The position numbers and the translations under genes were made by a program. Source: Cirrosporium novae-zelandiae (Eukaryota). From it: 64,000 nt of DNA. This document shows, one piece after another, positions 12,683 through 63,100 of this stretch. Position 1 is the stretch's first letter; each line of letters opens with the position of its first letter. The DNA lies in the NCBI GenBank assembly GCA_026023565.1, contig JAPETS010000036.1, forward strand, positions 186,001 to 250,000, in the 5' to 3' direction. Under the pieces are notes generated by a model. That model was not told the origin of the DNA. It did not search any database and saw only the letters and a program-made list of their open reading frames with translations.

Positions 12683-13555
12683 AGAATGACGTGTTGATTT
12701 TCCCGGACCAGAGTCTGCCGATTCTTTTCGTTGTACATATTTACAGCATTGAAAGGTGTTTGGGATACTGGGGGAGTTTGGCGCACGATACCCGGACCTG
12801 ATCATGGAAGAGGCCCGTCGTCATTGTTTTTAGTCTACAGTCACGTTGAGCGCTTTCGACTTCACAGTCGCTACCTTTTCTGATATCCCTCAGTTTGAAT
12901 CAGATCTATGCTGGTTAAGGAGCAATGAGGAATGGTAATGCAGCGATTTCACGGGTTGAATATAAAACCTGGTTAGCCAGAGGCTCCGGGGGGCATGGGC
13001 AATCATGTTTGATTTTTAATGCATTTTTCAGCGCATGTATTTTATAGATTAGACCGACGATCTCCACTCTTGTCTAGATATGATTTATGATCTAGATAGC
13101 AAATAATTATTACAAAGATACAATCATCCACGTGCCCTCTAAACAAGCATTGATGGTGGCGATCTTTCCGCTTGTCCCGTCTTGGTGAGTACGCTTAAGC
13201 CACCCGACGCCGAATGGCTGGTATTGGCACTAATTTCATAGGATAACTTTAGACATAATTCTGCTTCCACCTTTCAGCCTTGGAGGATGAATATCCTGGG
13301 TCCCACACCAGTCATGATTGGTGAAGATTGTTCCTACACAATGATTTTCACGGTAGTCTGCACTTTGGCTGAACCATTTGGTTTCAACCAAGGCACACTC
13401 ACTCTACTTTACCATTCCCTCGGTCTAGGTCAGTATATAAGCTAGGGCCTTTTCTCTTTTCGCAGCCTTTCTGCTGCCCTTGATCATGCTATGCTCTGCT
13501 GTAGTTAGTCATTTTTCTCTCCCCTAGGTATTTTTTACCACCCTTGCTAGTTGTC

Positions 13556-15738
13556 ATGTCGTACTGGCCTGTCCGACGTGGGGAAGGGGAGGGTGAATTC
13601 CAACCGTACAGCCAGGAGGATACTAGCAGATCTGAACAAGACATTTCTTATACGTCTGTTGATCCCATGGTAACGGAGGATATGATCGGACAGAGAACAC
13701 TTGACAACAGCAGCCCCCCAAAATCAACTTTCAAAGACGACAACGCCTTGGTGGATGGATATGAACTTGGAAGCCAGGAAACTCCCAGGAAGTCGGATTC
13801 CATTACGACCTCGAAATGGACAATTGGATGGAAGATCCCATCGTTAATAATTGGATTCTACTTCCTAGGTGCGATAATACCATTTTCTGCCTTTTGATGA
13901 CTGCTGAAAAATTTACAGCCCTGGCAATTGGTATTGCTCATCTTGTACTTTTTCACTGGCTAGACGGCCAAAAGGTGACCCAAACCATTCCTCAGTCATA
14001 CGTTGCAGCGATTTCCACTGCAATGGTCACCGCCTTCCGGATCTTCCTCGTGACATCTCTAGTCATTTCGTTTACTCAGTTAGTCTGGCAGAGGCTGCGA
14101 GGTCGACCGATGAAGGTACTCACCATTGATTCATTATTCTCTATCACTTCAAATCCCTTCAACTTTGTTTATCCAGATGTTCTTGCTAGTGCACCTCTAC
14201 TCTGTCTTTGTGCGGCCGTGTGCTGGTGTGTGCCAGTAGCAATGATATACCCTCCTGGTGCTTTGACGGTGGAACCAAGATCTTTTCTACAAACAGTAAA
14301 CATGAGCGTACCAACATTTGATCCAACATTTCGAGGTAATGGCACACTCGCTGATCTAGAGAGGCATGCCCTTTACAAATTTGACGATTTTATGAATTAC
14401 GAGTAAGGGTCCCTAGACACTCTATACTTGATTATGCGCAGTACAGTTAACCATCCTACCAGAAACCCCAAAATCAAGTTATCTAGGCTAGGCATTCAAA
14501 CCATTGTCTCCGGCAACTATCAGACATCATCATCTCCCTGCGGCCAGAACTGTTCCTATACCCTCGAAGTGACTGGGCCTGGTTTCAAATGTGAGGACCG
14601 GATTTATTCCGACCTACAGTCCTTAGTCAACGATACAGTTTACGGCACATATAGCTACGATATCACTGATGGGGCTATATACCTGGCCGGTGAAAATTCA
14701 TCCGACTCTGTGAATTCCGACGATATGTTCTACCGCTTCGAGCTGCAGTGGAGAGATACCGGAGTCGGACAGGCTCAGAATTTAAGCTGTCTTCTTCACG
14801 AGGCCTCCTACAAGATGAATGTATCTTATCTGGACGGAGTACAAACGGTGGCTGTGAAGAGTCATATCGGAAAAGTGCTGGATAGCACAGATATCTATAA
14901 TGATTTTGCACTGCTGCCCAACACGACGAAGGAGTACGAATCCTATGAATTTATGGTCACAAATTCGACCATCGGCGAGAGCGGAACCAATATTGCGGAT
15001 CTTTTCAAAAGATGTAACATCCTCGCCGTGAAAGACACGCTTGTAGACGGATTATCAGGTTTAGTAGGACAAAACGGTACGTTTCAAACAAACCACCCCA
15101 ACCCATCTCACCCAGGCAGATTCCTTACTTATTCCCCTCCCTTATAAAAAATAGTAATGCACAGCCAACCCGTCTACAAAACCCTAATCCAAGAATCCTC
15201 TCTCGCAACCGCCCCCCTCCTCTCCCAATCCGACCCGACCTTCAACATCTCCGCCAAAACTCTCCAATCCCTCCTCCTCAACATCACAATCTCGATGCTC
15301 ACCCTCAACCAAACCCACACCCCCGCCGCCGTGCAAACCACCACCTTCGATAACGTCTTCGCCTTCACCCACCCCCTAAACCTCATCCTCCCTTACTTCC
15401 TCTGCCTGGCCGCAGCCCTAATCTTCGTCATCGCGGGTGGCATCGCACTACTCCGAAACGGGGTCCCCGCGAGCTCGAATAGCTTTCTGCAGCTGCTGTG
15501 CACGACGCGCGGGAGCGAGAGGTTGGATAAAGCGGCTGCGGGTGGGTGTTTGGGAGGCCCGGATAATGTGCCGGAGGAATTGGGGAAGTTGAGGGTGAGG
15601 TTTGGGGAGTTGGTGCAGAGGGATGGGGATGGGATGGTGCAGAGGGATAGCGAGGGGATGGTGGTTAGGAGAGCGGGGTTTGGGACTGTAGATGAGGTGG
15701 CGCCGTTGAAGAGGTCGAGGACTTATGGGTTGGGCTAG
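13556..15738 (+). CDS. Fungal-specific membrane protein of unknown function (family often annotated formylmethionine deformylase-like)
   Basis: Four exons joined in frame (introns 13869-13918, 14403-14462, 15077-15154); N-terminal TM segments, PPGALTV, CGQNCSY..GPGFKC, C-terminal TM, SFLQLLCTT, LRVRFGEL. Confidence 0.75.
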
Positions 15739-19734: not shown

Positions 19735-21172
19735 TCAAAGTTTTACATCATTTCTTACAATCGAAACCTCGTCGGTTATATGGATTTGAGCCTGTTTCCT
19801 GGGAAGCCCGTCTTTCCCTAGTCCTGTCTGCTGTTGGCTTTCCAACAGATCCTCATTGGATCCATTCATCTTGAACCTGAGGTCGGTTGGATGTGCAGAA
19901 ACGGAGACACTGATTTCAGATATTGCCATTTCGTAGTCATTGCGCTGTGTCGATAACATCTGACTTCTCATGGTCGAGAGCTTAATTCTACTTCCTCGTG
20001 GTTTTCCCTTGTTGTTTGTCGATAGACTCTTGCTTGCGGAGCCAGATTGGTAGACACCAAGGTGTGAGAACCAGGAACCGAAGAGGGGCTTCAGCGCTGG
20101 TACCGAAAGTGCGATTGCGGTGCCGGCAATCTCGGCGTTCTCAATTCCCAGCATAGCGTTGTAGGCCCAACTACCGTCTGTGGCCCATTGGCCAACAACG
20201 ACCAGATGGATTCTGACGCAGCTAATAATAATAACTCTGTTGTCAATTGTTAGTTAGTAAACCTAAAAACAGGAATGAATAATCTAAAGCAATCATGGGA
20301 AGGAATACTCACAGAATACCAGGAAACAAGACAAATGACAGTTGAATCTTATGCCTTTGATCTACACGAAGCCTTGTGATAAGATAAGCTGGAATGATGA
20401 ACATGACCAGATCACAGATAAGAGACAAGGCCGAGTTAACACTATACACAAGACCCCAGCTGAGGCATGTATAGTTGTCGGCACCAGACTGCCATGAATA
20501 AGGCCACAAGCCTGTGACAGGGCTGCAGTGGAATATCAAGAGGAAGATTTGGGGCAAAAATGCGGCAATCAGAAAACCAAAAGTGAGTTTGATGATCAAC
20601 TGAAATTTCTCATGGCGACGGGTCAGTCTCCGGTAAAAAGCAAGACCAGATAGCCGGCAGACGAAGAGAGCGGTTGTATACAAGATGTGAGCGGCAAAGT
20701 CAAAGACCTCCGTCCTCTTTACGTCGGCAAGAGATAGCACATATTGAATATATTCAATATGTCTGCCGCTCCCTAGATGAATTAAGACAATGCAGAGCGC
20801 AATGAAGGAAACGTATATAGTCTATGCGTGTCTGGTTAGTTTGGACAGTAAAAGGTTTCTGGATGAATTCTTGTTTGGAGGATTGCACCCCTAGAGTCCT
20901 CTCTTCTCATCTCTTTAAATACTAAAGATGATAGGGAATATAAAGCATACCATGGTAAACACGGCCAGTGCGTCATCGAAGCCGAACTTCTTGATAAGCA
21001 AAAGACGGGCATAGCAGCGAAGAATAACTATCAAGAGCGTCAAGGCGCCAATAAAATAGATGGCGATAATGGCTGGCTTATCATTGGATTGGGCGAGGTA
21101 GGAAAGACTGACACTGTCTGGGATTCTACCGGCTACCTCAGCAGCAGCGATATCCGCAGGCACCTTGGCCAT
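19735..21172 (-). CDS. PTH11-like integral membrane protein (fungal rhodopsin-domain GPCR-like, no CFEM seen)
   Basis: LRCYAR...FGFDD, multiple TM helices, FHCSPV..LW..C, DLVMFIIP, ENAEIAGTAIALSVPALKPL; three exons (introns ~20823-20950 and ~20237-20312). Confidence 0.85.
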
Positions 21173-24194: not shown

Positions 24195-24899
24195 ATGTCG
24201 ATTCTCTCCTTGGAGTCAGGCTAGGCAAAAAAAAAATCATATACGATATTGTGTCTAAAATAATATAGAACGAATAGCTGTACATACATATACATAATTA
24301 ATATAAATAGCGGATTCTAATTTCTCCTATCTCTTATTTCATTTTGAAAACTTTCCCAGGAAGTAATCACACTAGTTATAACCTTGGAGAAGAATGGTCT
24401 TTTCAAGCTTCATTTTTAACAACCGCGGCATATATCGTCGAGAGCCCTTTTATTCATTAAGCAAGTTTTAATTCCAACCTTTTGTTCTTTCTTTTTTAAA
24501 ACGAATAACAGGAAATATGCTCAGGGGATCGTAAATCGAGTTTGCCGGCTTGCATAGTAACCAGGCAAGGTTTATTTATTCACAAAAACCCCACACCATG
24601 TCCTCTTCGACAGCAATATCTCAAGTCATAGTCAGTTATCCCCCAGGATATTTCATCAAAAAATAAAAAAATACGCCTCTTTCTCCATGACCCAGACTTT
24701 TTGCGTCTCATCAAATTTCCGCGAGGTTCTTTTTTACTAGCCTCAAGCTTAGTTAGCACTTTAAGCTTCCTCGCCTGGAAGTCACCAAGATTTTCTTGAA
24801 GGTGCTGGCTGAGTTGTGAGTAAAAGTAAGGATCTCTGTTATAGCGTAGCTAGGTTAGCTTATATATATATCCTAATACCGAGTAACCTATCCGCTCAA

Positions 24900-26540
24900 G
24901 TAGCGGATGTCCTTTTTGGTTTAGTTAGGTAACGAAAGAGTGTGTGTTGTTGTTAGCTTAGACTACATTCTAACAAGTAACACACACTTAGATATAAAAA
25001 CCTTGTTGTTTTATTTTCATTGATCCCTTTAGGGTAGGTATAATTTATTAATTATTACTTTTTTTAGTAATTAATTTGGTTTTTCATTGAGGTAGAGTTA
25101 TTAATTAGAGACCCAGAGCAATGTAGATAGTGGATGAGATTTTTTTTTTCCTATATAGATGAATGAAATTGGAAAAGGGAATGGAGGGGGAAAGAAGAGG
25201 AGAGGGGGGGTTTTGATCATAAGTGTAAATGTAAATACCTCTCCCCTCCTTTTTCTTATATTGTCATTAAATGTTCTATTCCTTCACACTCGTACTTATG
25301 ACCAAATCAAGAAACCAGAACCAGAACCAGAACCATGCATCCCCTTAACGTTACCTTCTCAAACCCTTTATAGCCCTTCGATCCAAAAAACCCCTCCACC
25401 ACCGAAAAAACCACAACCCCCCCCCCTCCCCCCTCCATCCATAAAACGCAACAACTCAACTTAGATTGCTCAACCGTTCTTTATTGTTAGTATTGAAACC
25501 AGACGAGACGAGATTTATGTTTAAGGGCTGTTTCTTGTTCTTATTGTAGTTGAAGAGGAGAAGGAGGAGGAGGGGGGGGGGGGGGCATTTGTTGTATGTA
25601 TGTTGTATGTGCATGTCATCATGGTATGGTGGTGGGGTTTTGGAGTTTTGGGGAGGGTGTGAAACGGTAGGTGTTGTTATTGCTATTATTGTTGAAAAGG
25701 GTATTTGTTCAAAACCTAACCAAGCCGAAGAAGAAGAAGAAACCAAAAATATATAGATAGATGCAAAAACGAGGAGGTAGTAGTAATAATAATGATAAAA
25801 CATCCTCCTCCTCCTCCCCCCTCCCTCTGGTACAAAAAATAAGAGTAAGATCTTACAGTCTTACAGGTATCTAATAGCAATAGCAAACAGATATAAAAAC
25901 CCTCGTTACCTATTTTTTTTTTATTCAAGTTTCCATTTATATATATAATCCAATGACTTTACTTGATTTTGAAACTTTTAAAACTTTTTGATATTAATTA
26001 CTTGTAAAGGCAAGGTAAGGTAAGGTAATTAGGGATTGGAAAGGGAAAGGGAAAGGGGTGTTTTGGTGAGTTAATGGGAAGGGAAAGGGACCTTTATGTG
26101 CCCTTAATTAGACTAATTAGACTAGAGTACAATACTGATATATGACTTGTATGTAATTATGTATTATATTATATTATATCCACCCAGAGACTAACGAATT
26201 GCTAGACGAAAAAAACAATACCGACGAGCTTTATATTCTCATTTATTTCCATATATTTTCATATGTGTTATTTTATTTTTCTTTCTTTAGTGAATGAAGA
26301 ATTCTTGGAAGAAAGCGGGTATCATCATGATGGTATGTTTTATTATACTAACGTTGCATTTTAACCACTTTTTTTCTTTTCTGTGCCTTTTTTATTTTTT
26401 TCTAGATTTCTAGGTGGGGTTGGCTAAGCTAAATGGAAAGCATGGGAAACAAGCAAAAGGGTGGGTGGGTGGTTAGTTGGTTGGGGGGTGTTGTATATGT
26501 GTGTGTTGGGTTTGGTGTGGGTGTAAGTGGGTGCGGTGGT
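24900..26540. repeat. AT-rich low-complexity tract with homopolymer runs and short microsatellites
   Basis: Poly-G/C/T runs, (GAACCA)n, (GAA)n, (AAGGT)n, (GGGAAA)n; the ORFs here are low-complexity artefacts. Confidence 0.7.
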
Positions 26541-26847
26541 TGATAGGTAAGTGAGAATGAGGTCTTTATGTTTTGGATCATATTGGAATGTTTAGTTGTG
26601 TTGAGAGGGGTTATTGTGATATGCTAATAGGTCTTCTACAGTGTATATCAGAAGATGGAAATGATACACCGATAGTGCCTCAAGATAATTAATTGGTTCT
26701 TACACCAGAAGAGGAGAGCGTTAAATTCCCAAAGCCTTCAAGAAAGAAGAAAAAAAAGATATTATATATTTACATGGGGTATATCATTATTATTCCAATA
26801 CAAATTTTTTTCGTTAAACCGAGCAACAGGATTTCCAACCCTCCTAC

Positions 26848-28319
26848 CTAGTGAATTTTGATAGCCAAATCAATAACCTCCGTCTCAACGGACAGCCGTC
26901 TGGGCTGGAACATTGCATCGTCAATTAGTCTTCTCAGACGTCTATGGCCTGAGCACGCCTGGATGAAGGCGTCGATCCGTTGGTGTCGCTCATAGTCGTT
27001 GAGGCGTGTTTGCAGAGCGTCTGGTAGTGTTTTTTCTGATGTCAATTCATCAACACTCCGTTCGATGTCCGCGAATTCCTTTGCCAGGAGAGCGAGAACT
27101 GCAATCCGACATTCTGTTAGGGGGTCGGGGAAGGAGAAAAATAGTGTTTGGAGGCACATTATTTTATCTTGAAGGGTCAGGAGAGCAGAAATTGTAGCAA
27201 ATCTGGATTGGATGAGTAAACTTGTGTGGAGACGCACTGATAAGGGGTGGAAAACATGCGTACGTGGTAGGTGTGCTCTGGGGTATTATTCTTGCTTGGT
27301 AACTATAAGTTATGTTCCAGGGTTCATCATATGACGGAGCAGGGTCATACTTTAGCGATCCTACAGATGGAATAAGTAGTTAGCGAGTTCCTCCATCCAA
27401 TGATGCTAATTAAAATCAAAACGCTTCGAGGGGATTTGAAGGTCAAGTGCTTATAGCATGGGATTTAGGGGGGGGGATGGGGAACGCTCGCTTCCTCACC
27501 TTCAAAATCACTGTGTTCACGATGAAAACTCAGTTTCAAGAGAAGATAGTCGATATAGTTGTTGTTTAGCAGTCTATATTCTATATTCTTGTCAGCATAT
27601 TGCCACCTCAGTCAAAACCTAAATCCACAAAGACCTCATTAAGTCATCATCCAATACGATCACCTCTACTTCTACCCCAATCCCATTTTAAGTACCATCT
27701 ACCTTAAAAGCTGTACATACCTTTGCATTTCAGTCCAGGAAAGACTGGCCTCTCCCTTAACTGAACCAACCATCCTCCTAAGCCATCACATACTTCCCTA
27801 ACCGTACTTGGATGCCCTTCTCGCATCACCGTATGAATTACAATCAAAGCTTTGAATACCATGAGCTCAATACCCAAGTGTTGAGTATAAGCTGTCGAAC
27901 CGGCAAATGCCGAAGCGTTTCCGTACGGGCTAAATGCATCGGCCAGGGATGAGGCCATTGGTACATAAGGCCTTCTCACCGTCGCCTTTTTGAGGATTGA
28001 CCAGAGAGGATGTGGAGCAGGTTCCGTAAATGTACTTAGGATGAGAGCCCGGATATGTTTGCCTGGTTTTTAGTTAACAAGTCTGTAACAAGGATCCGAC
28101 GAGACAAAGGAAGAGGCTGACTTTTTGGCGCATCTTCGTCTATGGTTACAGTCGGATTGTTAGTACAAATATTCTTGGTGGGCTCAAATGTGAGTTAGGA
28201 AGCACACCTGCCCTCATTGCCTTTTCGACGCTGATCCGCAAGTCAGGATGAGTATGGGAGGCATCCTGAGGAGAGTTCGGCCCACTTGAATGTTTGATAT
28301 TGAGATGAAGGATACCCAT
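26848..28319 (-). CDS. Divergent Sla2/End4-like ANTH-domain-only protein (334 aa)
   Basis: Six exons (28319-28208, 28139-28122, 28062-27721, 27580-27500, 27360-27264, 27202-26848) splice to a stop-free 1005-nt CDS. Sla2-like motifs: DLRISVEKA..DEDAPKSKHIR, FKALIVIH..REGHP, YLLLKLSFHREHSDFEG, LLTLQDKI, ECRIAVL. Confidence 0.82.
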
Positions 28320-60187: not shown

Positions 60188-63100
60188 TTATGTTGTGTCA
60201 AGGTCCTTAACATATTTGTCTCTCAAGTTGCACAAATTATCCTTCCACCAATCGGGGATATCCTCTGTCCCGAGTATAGACTCCGCATGATAGGAGTGGA
60301 GGAGATCAACTAGTTGCTGAATATTCAAACCGTAGCTGGCAATATCATTCGCCATATACAGAACTGAGGGGCATTTCGTGTGTTCATTCACATCAGCTCC
60401 ATTCTCTAGTAGAATTCGGATTGTGTTTAATCCAAGTAGTTCCGAGAAGTCACCGGAAGGTGGACTTGTTGTTATACAGAAGGCCCAGGAGACTCCACCA
60501 GAAAGGGCATGTTGTAATGCAGACCCAAAATTTCCCAAGAGATTGACATCTGCCCCGAATTCAGTCAAAAGCTTTAAAGTAGAATTTTGGCCCCTAGAAG
60601 CTGCAGAAGCTAATGCAGTATTACAATATGCTGTTGTAGAAAGATTAATATCCGCCCCTAATTCAAGCAAAAGATTCACAGTAGAATTATGACCATTAGA
60701 AGCTGCAGCAGTAAGGGCAGTACCACGATATCCTATTTTAGCAGGATTAATATCCGCTCCTGACTTTATCAAAAGGCTCACGGTAGAATTTTGGCCTCTA
60801 GAAGCTGCAGCAGCTAATGCAGTACTAAAAAGTCCTTCTGTGGAAAGATTAATATCCGCCCCTAATTCAAGCAGCAATTCTATCGCGGAATTCTGGCCTT
60901 GGCTTGCAGCAAACTGTAATGCGGTAAGTCCTTTTGCTGTTTGGTGGTCAACTTCTGCGCCATTTTCAACTAGCAGTCTGATCATATCCAGGTTTCCATA
61001 GGACGCTGATACTGCCAGCGGTGGACTCTTATCCCCATAGTTGCAATTGACGTCAGTTCCTTCATGAACTAAGGATTTACCGGTCTTCCAAAGCTCCAGA
61101 ATAGATGCAAAATATACCGGAGATGGTAGAAAGGAACTTTCATTGGCAGTATTATTAATAACCATGGATACTTGATGCTCGCACAGCCCTGGTGATAGGC
61201 AATCTGGATGGTCACAGTGCAAATCATTTAGGCATAACGAAAGGGCATTTTTGATATTGTAGTAGTCTAGATAGAAGGAAGTTATATGCATGCTATCACT
61301 ATACACGTTGAGAAATTCAGCCCACTTTGTAACATCCAGGCTGTTATCCAGAAATCGGGCAATAAATTCAGGTCCAGGTGGAAGCGTAGTTTCATCTTTA
61401 ATTCTGCTATGATCTACCCAGTATCGCGCTGCATAAGCTAGAAATGGCCTACTGGCAAGAACTCCACTCCAGAGTTTTTCGATATTGCTAGTATTCTTGT
61501 TCGTGTTCTTCCCGGCTCCTAGCCAACTTTGAAGCCACTGGATGGTGTCTACCTCTTCCATAACTTGAATTAGATAAAATAGGCATGACTCGGCTATGTG
61601 GCTATGTGCGTGTAGTTCTTGAATGCGGAACCAAGTACCCTCGGATGCGCGGCTAGTTTCGAGGAACTCTTGGACAGAGAAGTGGGCTAATCTTATGTCT
61701 TTTCTTTCTACAGCAACGTCGGAGCTGTCTTCGGAGTTGTGCTCATAGATGACCTGGGTGCTCCATTCTCGACGGTACATTACTGAATTAGAAGTCACAA
61801 GGCCAGAACATATTCTCAGGATCTCTTCAGGTTCATGTAAGGAACGATCCGGATCGATGTAAGGAGGTTCATGAACCACTGTGAGGACTTCGGCTAGCTC
61901 GTCCAAGAAAAGGGGCCTCTGAGAGTAAGACAAGAATTGAAGGATTGTCTTCACTCTGTCAAGATGGATTTCATCAACCCGTTCTAGCATTCGTATATAC
62001 GTCTCATCTAAGGTTTTTGGCAGTGATTTGAGAGTTTTGCTGAGGTCAGCCTTGGAGGCGCATTTTTTGATCTCGTCCATCTGGCATACAACCCAGCGGA
62101 ACCTGGTAATGCATGAATCAGTCTGTGAACAACAAAAAACCTCAGAATGGCCCTATCTTAGGATCCTCCAGAAACATAGTCAATTGATAAGCATTCCAAC
62201 CAAACTACAAAACGACCCATTCTTCCTTCTGTAAAGGAAAAAGGCTTCGAGGGGACAAAATCATACATTCCTTGTGCACCACTCGTCAGAGCATCTTCAA
62301 TCTCCACTTACGTGCTGCGGGACCACCTTTTCAATTTGCCATCGCATAAAATATTTTCATGGACGAAATATCGGATATCGCTATCAACAACAGCCTCTTC
62401 AAGGCATACTATACTCATAGTAATATGGTCTAGACTCTCTTCGATATCGGTTTCTCTCCTGCTTGTTGCTAATATATGAAGACTTTCAATATTTTTTTCT
62501 CTTATATCAGCAATAATTTTCAGCATTTTTTCTCTTTCTCCACACTCATCAAGAGAGTCAATGACTACGTAGGTGCATCTTAAAAGGGAGGCGATATTTA
62601 AGAGCTCTGCGGTAAGATCGCTATTTGACGGTTTCATAGTCCCCGAGTTGCATTGTGAATATAGGCGAGTGAGAGAATCCGGAACGTCTCCATATTTATA
62701 ACAGAGTTGTTGGACTAGCGACCGTAGCATCCCTTCACATGTTTTTTTTGCCTACGACTGGAAGTCAAAGTAAAAGTACACGACTGCTTTTCCGACTGTC
62801 TGGTCATAATTGTCATGGAGATTCTGTATGATTGTTGAGCTAGAATTGGTCAGTAATTGCCTAAGGTATTTGATAGAGGATGAGAACGAGAAAGATATTC
62901 TGGTCGTGAATTAAAGAATGAAGTGGATGTTTCTGTTGCGTATGATCTCACTGACCTTAATATTGTCTTTCCGGCGCCAGCTGTGGCTCGTAAGTAGTCA
63001 ATCTCTATAATAGACGCATAGCTTTACCTTTCCCGTTCAGCCACAAGAATGAACAAGGATCACGTTGCCATTCTCTATATGTTTCCCCAACAAGAAACCA

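Follow-up and report, generated by a model that had tools for sequence, protein, structure and literature searches.

A likely 5′ partial duplicate of SLA2 with the appearance of an ANTH-only coding gene in Cirrosporium novae-zelandiae

Sla2/HIP1R is usually regarded as a conserved adaptor whose job rests on linking phosphatidylinositol 4,5-bisphosphate (PIP2) and epsin to actin and, to our knowledge, it is single-copy in fungi. What, then, is to be made of a Sla2-like gene that stops just past its ANTH domain? Such a gene lies at positions 26848-28319, on the minus strand, of a 64,000-nt stretch of Cirrosporium novae-zelandiae DNA (contig JAPETS010000036.1, positions 186,001 to 250,000; the whole stretch is referred to here as the window). 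With a probability that we put at roughly 0.55, it is a lineage-specific, partial (5′) duplicate of SLA2, still with the appearance of a gene that codes for a predicted PIP2-binding, ANTH-only protein. It represents a new architectural variant within the well-known Sla2 family, from one genome, and the most useful results that it has yielded are the evidence from intron positions and the correction of the public gene model.

Gene structure, identity and truncation

The gene was rebuilt from the reverse complement as six exons, whose joined coding sequence is 1005 nt long (334 codons and a TAG stop) and is preceded by an in-frame TAA four codons 5′ of the ATG. The five introns measure 68, 59, 140, 139 and 61 nt, all of them (5/5) have GT-AG boundaries, and in several a branch site of the CTAAC/CTGAC kind lies about 17-23 nt 5′ of the acceptor. 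An earlier inspection of the window, made from its letters and a list of its open reading frames (the sequence-only reading), had arrived at this same six-exon, five-intron, GT-AG model of a 334-aa protein with an 18-nt DEDAPK micro-exon, and it proves correct in all structural detail. As it had also remarked, the stop-to-stop list of open reading frames (ORFs) gives only two sizeable pieces of the gene, 26848-27285 (145 aa) and 27704-28069 (121 aa). The parts of the gene are as follows.

28208..28319, minus strand: exon 1, with the ATG at 28319; residues 1-37; the terminal part, HTHPDLRISVEKAMRA, is homologous to the Sla2 N-terminus (HTK-SExELAINIRKA)
28140..28207, minus strand: intron 1, 68 nt, GT-AG, phase 1, with a TACTAAC branch site
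28122..28139, minus strand: exon 2, the 18-nt micro-exon; DEDAPK corresponds to EETAPK of Sla2 and holds the equivalent of yeast K24
28063..28121, minus strand: intron 2, 59 nt, phase 1; it interrupts the counterpart of the R codon in APK-R-KH
27721..28062, minus strand: exon 3, residues 44-157, SKHIR...FKALIVIHTVMREGHP; the strongest ANTH match of all exons
27885..27979, minus strand: in-frame extra segment inside exon 3, residues ~72-103, 93 nt beyond the canonical length
27581..27720, minus strand: intron 3, 140 nt, GTATGT...TAG, phase 1, with a TGCTGAC branch site
27500..27580, minus strand: exon 4, 81 nt, 27 residues, EYRLLNNNYIDYLLLKLSFHREHSDFE; homologous to GYGPLIKEYVNFLxAKLxFHxQHPxFN
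27361..27499, minus strand: intron 4, 139 nt, GTGAGG...TAG, phase 1, interrupting the glycine codon of F-x-G, with a CGCTAAC branch site
27264..27360, minus strand: exon 5, residues 185-217, poorly aligned, with ~13 extra residues
27203..27263, minus strand: intron 5, 61 nt, GTACGC...CAG, phase 2
26848..27202, minus strand: exon 6, residues 218-334 and the TAG (26850-26848); C-terminal ANTH helices (TLQDK, ECRI, RRL) followed by a novel 17-residue tail

The form APKSKHIR, which the sequence-only reading had given in place of the canonical motif, is indeed read across intron 2, at the junction of the micro-exon and exon 3, and the insertion of about 30 residues that it had placed before FKAL is present as an extra segment of ~31 residues (about 72-103) directly before that motif. 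The same reading had called the gene hidden, which does not hold, as a word-index search with exon 3 led to a 100% identical NCBI protein of 307 aa (P0001), named "MAG: sla2 Src-like adaptor 2 [Cirrosporium novae-zelandiae]" and assigned to the class Xylobotryomycetes. Apart from the 27 residues of exon 4, which it lacks, this public sequence is identical to the six-exon product; the locus was thus already annotated, with one exon skipped.

The product belongs to the ANTH family according to a profile search, which the sequence-only reading had suggested as a check: the public 307-aa form scores 43.2 bits against Pfam ANTH (PF07651; cut-off 21.5 bits, E 3.1e-11), exon 3 alone is above the threshold with 26.1 bits, and exon 4 alone gives a weak match (E 0.089) to profile positions 102-125. 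Exons 1-3, 4 and 6 match Sla2 ANTH domains colinearly and, among the sequences of solved structures, exons 3 and 6 do so with the ANTH domain of Chaetomium thermophilum Sla2 (5oo7). In a search of PDB sequences with the 307-aa product, 5oo7 was the best match (E 6.6e-18), followed by two yeast Sla2 ANTH entries at ~1e-9 (the Sla2 chains together span 6.6e-18 to 8e-10) and by HIP1R (E 0.023), while no AP180/CALM chain appeared at E <= 10. Given matches to Sla2 and HIP1R and none to AP180/CALM, the domain is, by sequence, of the Sla2/HIP1R type, closer to it than to AP180/CALM.

Wider searches gave a similar picture of its relatives. A word search for longer proteins returned three full-length Sla2 proteins (ANTH and I/LWEQ) at 24-27% identity, and HMMER, run exhaustively over 1.84 billion representatives, gave 53 proteins at E <= 1e-3, the next one after the protein itself having an E-value of 2.6e-9. 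Ten of these matches were looked up by name: eight are fungal (Dissophora, Tephrocybe, Babjeviella, Anaeromyces, Gaertneriomyces, Coelomomyces, Nowakowskiella and Allomyces), a ninth is a HIP1R-like fragment, and the names are either Sla2-like or generic (ANTH/ENTH domain-containing, hypothetical). In an alignment of the six-exon product with nine ANTH domains of canonical Pezizomycotina Sla2 (translations of loci without introns) and 21 further Sla2 N-termini from fungi, its identity is 34-36% to the former and 28-33% to the latter, and it keeps 22 of the 37 invariant columns and 41 of the 72 columns that are conserved at >=90%. Its end branch in the tree amounts to 4.8 changes per column, as compared with a median of 0.2 (~24x). 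The proposal of a Sla2-derived, ANTH-only and strongly diverged product is thus supported by homology, by this alignment and by a tblastn search of the window.

That tblastn search used 12 proteins of >900 aa taken from the exhaustive HMMER search, of which 11 are Sla2-like and one (P0029), seemingly unrelated, gave no match. Exon 3 was matched by 10 of the 12 queries, exon 4 by five and exon 6 by three. No coiled-coil or I/LWEQ exons were found in the 64-kb window, where all other tblastn matches had E >= 0.42; the sequence-only reading had inferred a loss of actin coupling and had seen the product end right after the ANTH fold, and the TAG does follow codon 334, just past it. An assembly error hiding downstream Sla2 exons had been named as a possible source of this truncation. 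However, one Logan contig spans 25572-31000 without differences, and the next contig break, a low-complexity stretch near 25572-25600, lies 1.25 kb past the stop, with no such exons before it. The contig comes from the single public run listed with this sequence, a DNA run that is probably the source of the assembly, and it consequently serves as a check on the assembler rather than as an independent sample; no RNA run was listed, a result with no bearing on expression.

Intron positions and mode of origin

A first hint of where canonical genes are interrupted was given by three short matches (P0024, P0026 and P0032), which on inspection are apparent gene fragments of Pezizomycotina Sla2 and whose junk N-termini stop directly before QPILADEV, as if an intron were placed there. 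An alignment of these three was used to find canonical Pezizomycotina SLA2 genes, and the set studied here comprises the best 80 of 257 confirmed metagenome loci, being biased to long contiguous matches and against intron-rich genes. Introns were mapped by motifs and by tblastn, and the loci were de-replicated into groups at 98% protein identity.

A phase-2 intron splits the V codon at the KV/QPIL junction in 33 of 76 loci (20 of 38 groups, with one group mixed), with lengths of roughly 60-370 nt. At this same site, the V and Q codons of the copy are 93 nt further apart than those of the canonical genes. The extra stretch begins with GTGAGA and reaches ACAG after 88 nt (27979-27892); splicing of this 88-nt GTGAGA...ACAG unit would break the frame, and we have rejected it as a current intron and retained it as a relic of one. 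The extra segment is probably an ancestral intron turned coding, the alignment at this point being uncertain by a few codons.

Two of the present introns also have canonical counterparts. In the R codon of APK-R-KH, a phase-1 intron is found in three loci (L058, L062 and L070; 3/76 loci and 3/38 groups), and intron 2 of the copy has phase 1 in the homologous R codon, which now reads AGC (Ser). In L070, the G codon at HPEFNG/TFEY is additionally split by a phase-1 intron of 48 nt; intron 4 of the copy is likewise of phase 1, lies in the homologous G codon of HSDFEG and splits the codon as G/GA, as is also the case in L070. The central ANTH exon is contiguous in all canonical loci except L070.

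As introns 2 and 4 sit at canonical codons and phases, and the insertion at a canonical intron site, the copy appears to have arisen by duplication of the 5′ part of SLA2 at the DNA level, from an intron-bearing gene of the intron-richer, L070-like kind. A processed (retro-)copy was considered and rejected, because five introns are present and two of them are at canonical SLA2 positions and phases. What is new here are the shared positions of introns 2 and 4 and the insertion at a canonical intron site. The locus thereby provides a clear and checkable case of intron positions serving as markers of DNA-level partial duplication and, in the extra segment, of probable intron-to-coding conversion.

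Two observations on the canonical loci may be added. The gene at L070:3700-5032 is a canonical SLA2 that is intron-richer than the other loci, with introns at the R, V and G codons and after RAMH, and the intron of L062 in the R codon of APK-R-KH is of the GC-AG type, with a GC donor.

Functional residues, coding state and rival explanations

In yeast Sla2, according to an excerpt of PMC8129110, the PIP2 pocket consists of K24, K26 and H27, together with K14, whereas the ENTH domain of epsin is contacted through interface 1 (R25, R29, W36) and interface 2 (K10, K13, K14). R29, which is R37 in C. thermophilum, is essential to ENTH/ANTH assembly according to section 7 of PMC5780493. Residues were mapped onto the copy by their spacing on aligned rows and by the multiple alignment. 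All four pocket residues have equivalents on this alignment (K14 in K33, K24 in K43, K26 in K45 and H27 in H46), and the ENTH-contact arginine R29 is kept as R48, in KHIR. By contrast, the ENTH interfaces have changed at R25 (S44), W36 (F55) and K13 (E32), with K14 kept; K10 is replaced by Ile in the copy and likewise in the canonical Pezizomycotina rows. On paper, the lipid pocket is thus intact and the epsin interfaces appear partly eroded, and the view that the copy keeps the membrane/epsin-binding module stands for the four PIP2-pocket residues and fails in part for epsin, owing to R25S, K13E and W36F.

The fold itself may also be affected. The subfamily-specific R-Y-L reads R-R-L in the copy (R304, R305, L306), with the Tyr replaced and the Leu kept; the Tyr-Leu pair is reported in the same excerpt of PMC8129110 to be required for ANTH folding, and its deletion to destabilise the yeast ANTH domain. 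Two residues that have been linked to ubiquitin binding by Sla2, L212 and D218 (an excerpt of PMC8648300), have their equivalents in the least conserved loop, where no mapping is possible. An AlphaFold (AF2) model was built for the 307-aa form, which is without exon 4, with the guidance of Sla2 rows, and so speaks neither for nor against a stable fold. Its confidence per residue (pLDDT) is low at residues 1-22, 75-99, 149-187 and 288-307, the second of these ranges belonging to the extra segment. Foldseek searches with this same exon 4-less, Sla2-guided model gave Sla2 ANTH chains as the best matches (TM-score 0.47-0.55), with AP180/CALM ranking lower.

The main rival of our reading is a functionless relic, namely a partial SLA2 duplicate that had no role at or soon after duplication and has drifted since, decaying or never functional, its frame being open through a lack of damage so far or through gene models that thread around the damage. 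We consider this possible, if doubtful, and a number of results weigh in its favour or against our reading. The gene is known from one assembly only and is an orphan in every search: it was the sole match to itself among 2725 candidates of near length in the word search, nothing else fell below 1e-10 in the exhaustive HMMER search of 1.84 billion representatives, which contained no orthologue, and the word-index protein searches returned no full-length Cirrosporium SLA2 that could have been its parent. Its codon usage gives the weakest signal among the genes of the window, with log-odds of +0.09 bit/codon, below all 15 chunks of neighbouring genes (0.137-0.428, values that are inflated, as these genes also trained the codon table). 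Fifteen of the 37 invariant Sla2 positions are altered, with losses that are relevant to the fold among them (e.g., W36F, R25S, K13E and the Tyr of the Tyr-Leu pair changed to Arg), two insertions lie within the ANTH fold, the structure model is of low confidence (pLDDT 59.9, pTM 0.55) and the gene is truncated. Introns 1, 3 and 5 were not seen in any sampled canonical locus (0/72 for intron 1), and the copy has no counterpart of the intron that often follows RAMH in canonical genes (19 of 34 groups, two mixed). Pseudogenes derived from partial SLA2 duplicates are, moreover, known in budding yeasts, according to passages of PMC6692504.

Nevertheless, at ~65% protein divergence many stops and frameshifts would be expected of a drifting sequence, and none of 200,000 composition-preserving shuffles of the coding sequence was free of stops (0/200,000); even the two long exons, taken singly, reached this state in just 0.2-0.3% of shuffles (392/200,000 for exon 3 and 636/200,000 for exon 6). 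Frame 0 has the best codon usage in six of the six exons, all 10 splice dinucleotides are intact, the two introns at ancestral positions leave the model little freedom to thread around damage, and the four PIP2-pocket residues and R29 have been retained. Repeat-induced point mutation (RIP) is commonly recognised by a TpA/ApT index above about 0.89 and a (CpA+TpG)/(ApC+GpT) index below about 1.03. The exons have values of 0.65 and 1.34, like the neighbouring genes, and RIP was rejected as the source of the divergence, which leaves the relic without a RIP footprint to explain its rapid change. As for a chance origin of the frame, it is excluded by homology at the sequence level.

If the gene does code, it might still make something other than the six-exon protein, such as the public five-exon form (307 aa) or another isoform in which the micro-exon is skipped or an in-frame piece of 99 or 114 nt is removed from the insertion. 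The frame would indeed survive the omission of exon 4 (81 nt) or of exon 2 (18 nt), and in-frame GT...AG pairs of 99 and 114 nt do exist inside the insertion. We nonetheless hold a reading without the six-exon protein to be quite unlikely: exon 4 aligns, where colinearity would place it, with the Sla2 helix ...YVxFLxAKLxFHxxHPxF and includes five of the invariant columns (Y, Y, K, H and F), the micro-exon encodes E-x-APK with its PIP2 lysine, and the in-frame sub-introns have poor signals and would, if removed, delete part of the QPILADE homologue. Since exon 4 is also bounded by an ancestral splice site, its donor having the same codon and phase as the intron of one canonical SLA2 gene, the omission of exon 4 from the public model is very probably an error, and the six-exon model is the better of the two. 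Highly unlikely, in our judgement, is that the copy is no paralogue of this lineage at all and belongs to an old separate ANTH family or was acquired from another fungal group. In the free maximum-likelihood trees, the copy was placed outside Pezizomycotina, together with another long branch in one tree and inside a yeast-like group in the other, and its best full-library matches belong to early-diverging fungi, to a basidiomycete and to a yeast. With a branch of ~24x the median length, such a placement is unreliable, and forcing the copy to group with Pezizomycotina costs only 0.8 log-likelihood units and is not rejected by the approximately unbiased test (p-AU 0.29). An origin within Pezizomycotina is consequently neither shown nor rejected by the tree. 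It is favoured by the identity, which peaks with Pezizomycotina, by the best single score, obtained with a sordariomycete Sla2 (5oo7), and by the two rare intron positions that are common to the copy and to Pezizomycotina SLA2 genes; in addition, the 1.84 billion representatives contained neither a second member of a separate family nor any ANTH-only family of the same type.

Proposed history, known systems and genomic neighbourhood

For a 5′ partial SLA2 duplicate that still codes, the following history can be proposed. A duplication at the DNA level would have carried over the 5′ part of a SLA2 gene with introns, beginning at the start codon and ending where the ANTH domain ends. The copy would have retained at least two ancestral introns, while a third became ~31 in-frame codons, probably forming a disordered loop between helices, and it would have been closed by the new 17-residue tail. 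Extremely fast evolution may then have followed. The most likely working mode of the predicted protein would be that of a monomeric PIP2-binding module, without coiled-coil dimerisation, clathrin light chain binding or transmission of force to actin, and with a probably weakened co-assembly with epsin. Such a module could either compete weakly with Sla2 at sites of endocytosis, bearing no force, or work by way of a new partner. The stronger proposal that the copy is an ANTH-only Sla2 descendant kept by selection, as an actin-uncoupled PIP2-binding regulator or a neofunctionalised membrane sensor that would be partly built from an intron-turned-loop, is one that we regard as rather unlikely.

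The closest known system is the canonical adaptor itself (Sla2/End4/SlaB/HIP1R). The copy is homologous to its ANTH domain over the full length and has the same order of motifs (K..APK-x-KH-x-R, FKAL..H....GHP, KL.FH, TLQDK, ECRI), and the PIP2-pocket residues, the ENTH-contact Arg and two intron positions are shared as well. It differs from it in being without the coiled coil and the I/LWEQ-THATCH domain, in its ~35% identity, in a family whose canonical fungal branches are short (median 0.2), and in its two insertions, novel tail and 15/37 changed invariant residues. What it has in common with AP180/CALM/Yap1801-2 is a predicted ANTH fold and a K..KKKH-type PIP2 pocket, although there is no sequence match to AP180/CALM at E <= 10. 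Short ANTH proteins of 330-374 aa are also found in plants and ciliates, where an atlas look-up returned generic ANTH clusters only.

In the literature searched for ANTH-only Sla2 paralogues or partial SLA2 copies, only laboratory truncations and copies linked to the mating-type (MAT) locus of yeasts were found, and PMC5358931 offered nothing of relevance. Regarding the former, Sla2(1-360) in sla2-delta cells has been used as a read-out for ANTH function (section 7 and the Fig. 3c legend of PMC5780493), and isolated ANTH domains co-assemble with ENTH on PIP2 (in the excerpt of PMC8129110). Their architecture, an ANTH domain without the actin-binding end, is the same as that of the copy; however, they are laboratory-made and of native sequence, whereas the copy is natural and has an eroded epsin interface (R25S, K13E, W36F). 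A natural copy of the membrane end only would thus be an evolutionary counterpart of these constructs, and it might reveal the ANTH surfaces that are free to drift when force need no longer be transmitted.

Regarding the latter, partial SLA2 copies and pseudogenes are known beside the MAT loci of budding yeasts, and they are likewise natural partial copies made by DNA duplication. In the repeat that is detailed in passages of PMC6692504, it is the 3′ end of SLA2 that was copied, it flanks the MAT genes and it is nearly identical to its parent, other copies being pseudogenes; the Cirrosporium copy, by contrast, consists of the 5′ end and is extremely diverged. SLA2 is also used as a MAT-flank marker, and this is one instance where the public name "sla2", given to a product that is no full-length Sla2, and the omitted exon could mislead automated orthologue calls. 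Among 89 ORF translations of the window that were scanned (16 + 72 + P0001), no match to an HMG-box, an alpha-box or APN2 was found, and a MAT-locus context as the source of the partial copy was rejected for this window.

The neighbours are, in fact, ordinary housekeeping and metabolic genes, including Trk, a GHMP kinase, a PPR protein, a hydrolase, an amidase, bZIP and MFS genes, a RING plus SAP protein, Snf7, Trs85, a CCA-adding enzyme-like gene, Tti2, a Sac1-like gene and a pectate lyase. An SDR gene lies in divergent orientation about 1.4 kb upstream of the copy. Downstream of the gene, the stretch 24200-26800 is AT-rich (GC 35-40%) and of low complexity, with GGTAAG and GGGAAA runs and purine/pyrimidine tracts; its TpA/ApT is about 0.9-1.3, and Logan contigs break here, one of them with an extra G behind 25571.

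Three other places in the window deserve mention. On the plus strand, four consecutive ORFs of 130-246 aa at 13505-15738, all without a Pfam match at E <= 1e-4, may form one multi-exon gene. At 19735-20821, on the minus strand, an ORF with the Pfam 'Fungal rhodopsin domain' (PF20684) adjoins a 172-aa ORF without a family match. Finally, the ORFs at 60188-62751, also on the minus strand, combine an NPHP3_N (NACHT-associated) N-terminal part with ankyrin repeats and are fungal NLR-like in appearance.

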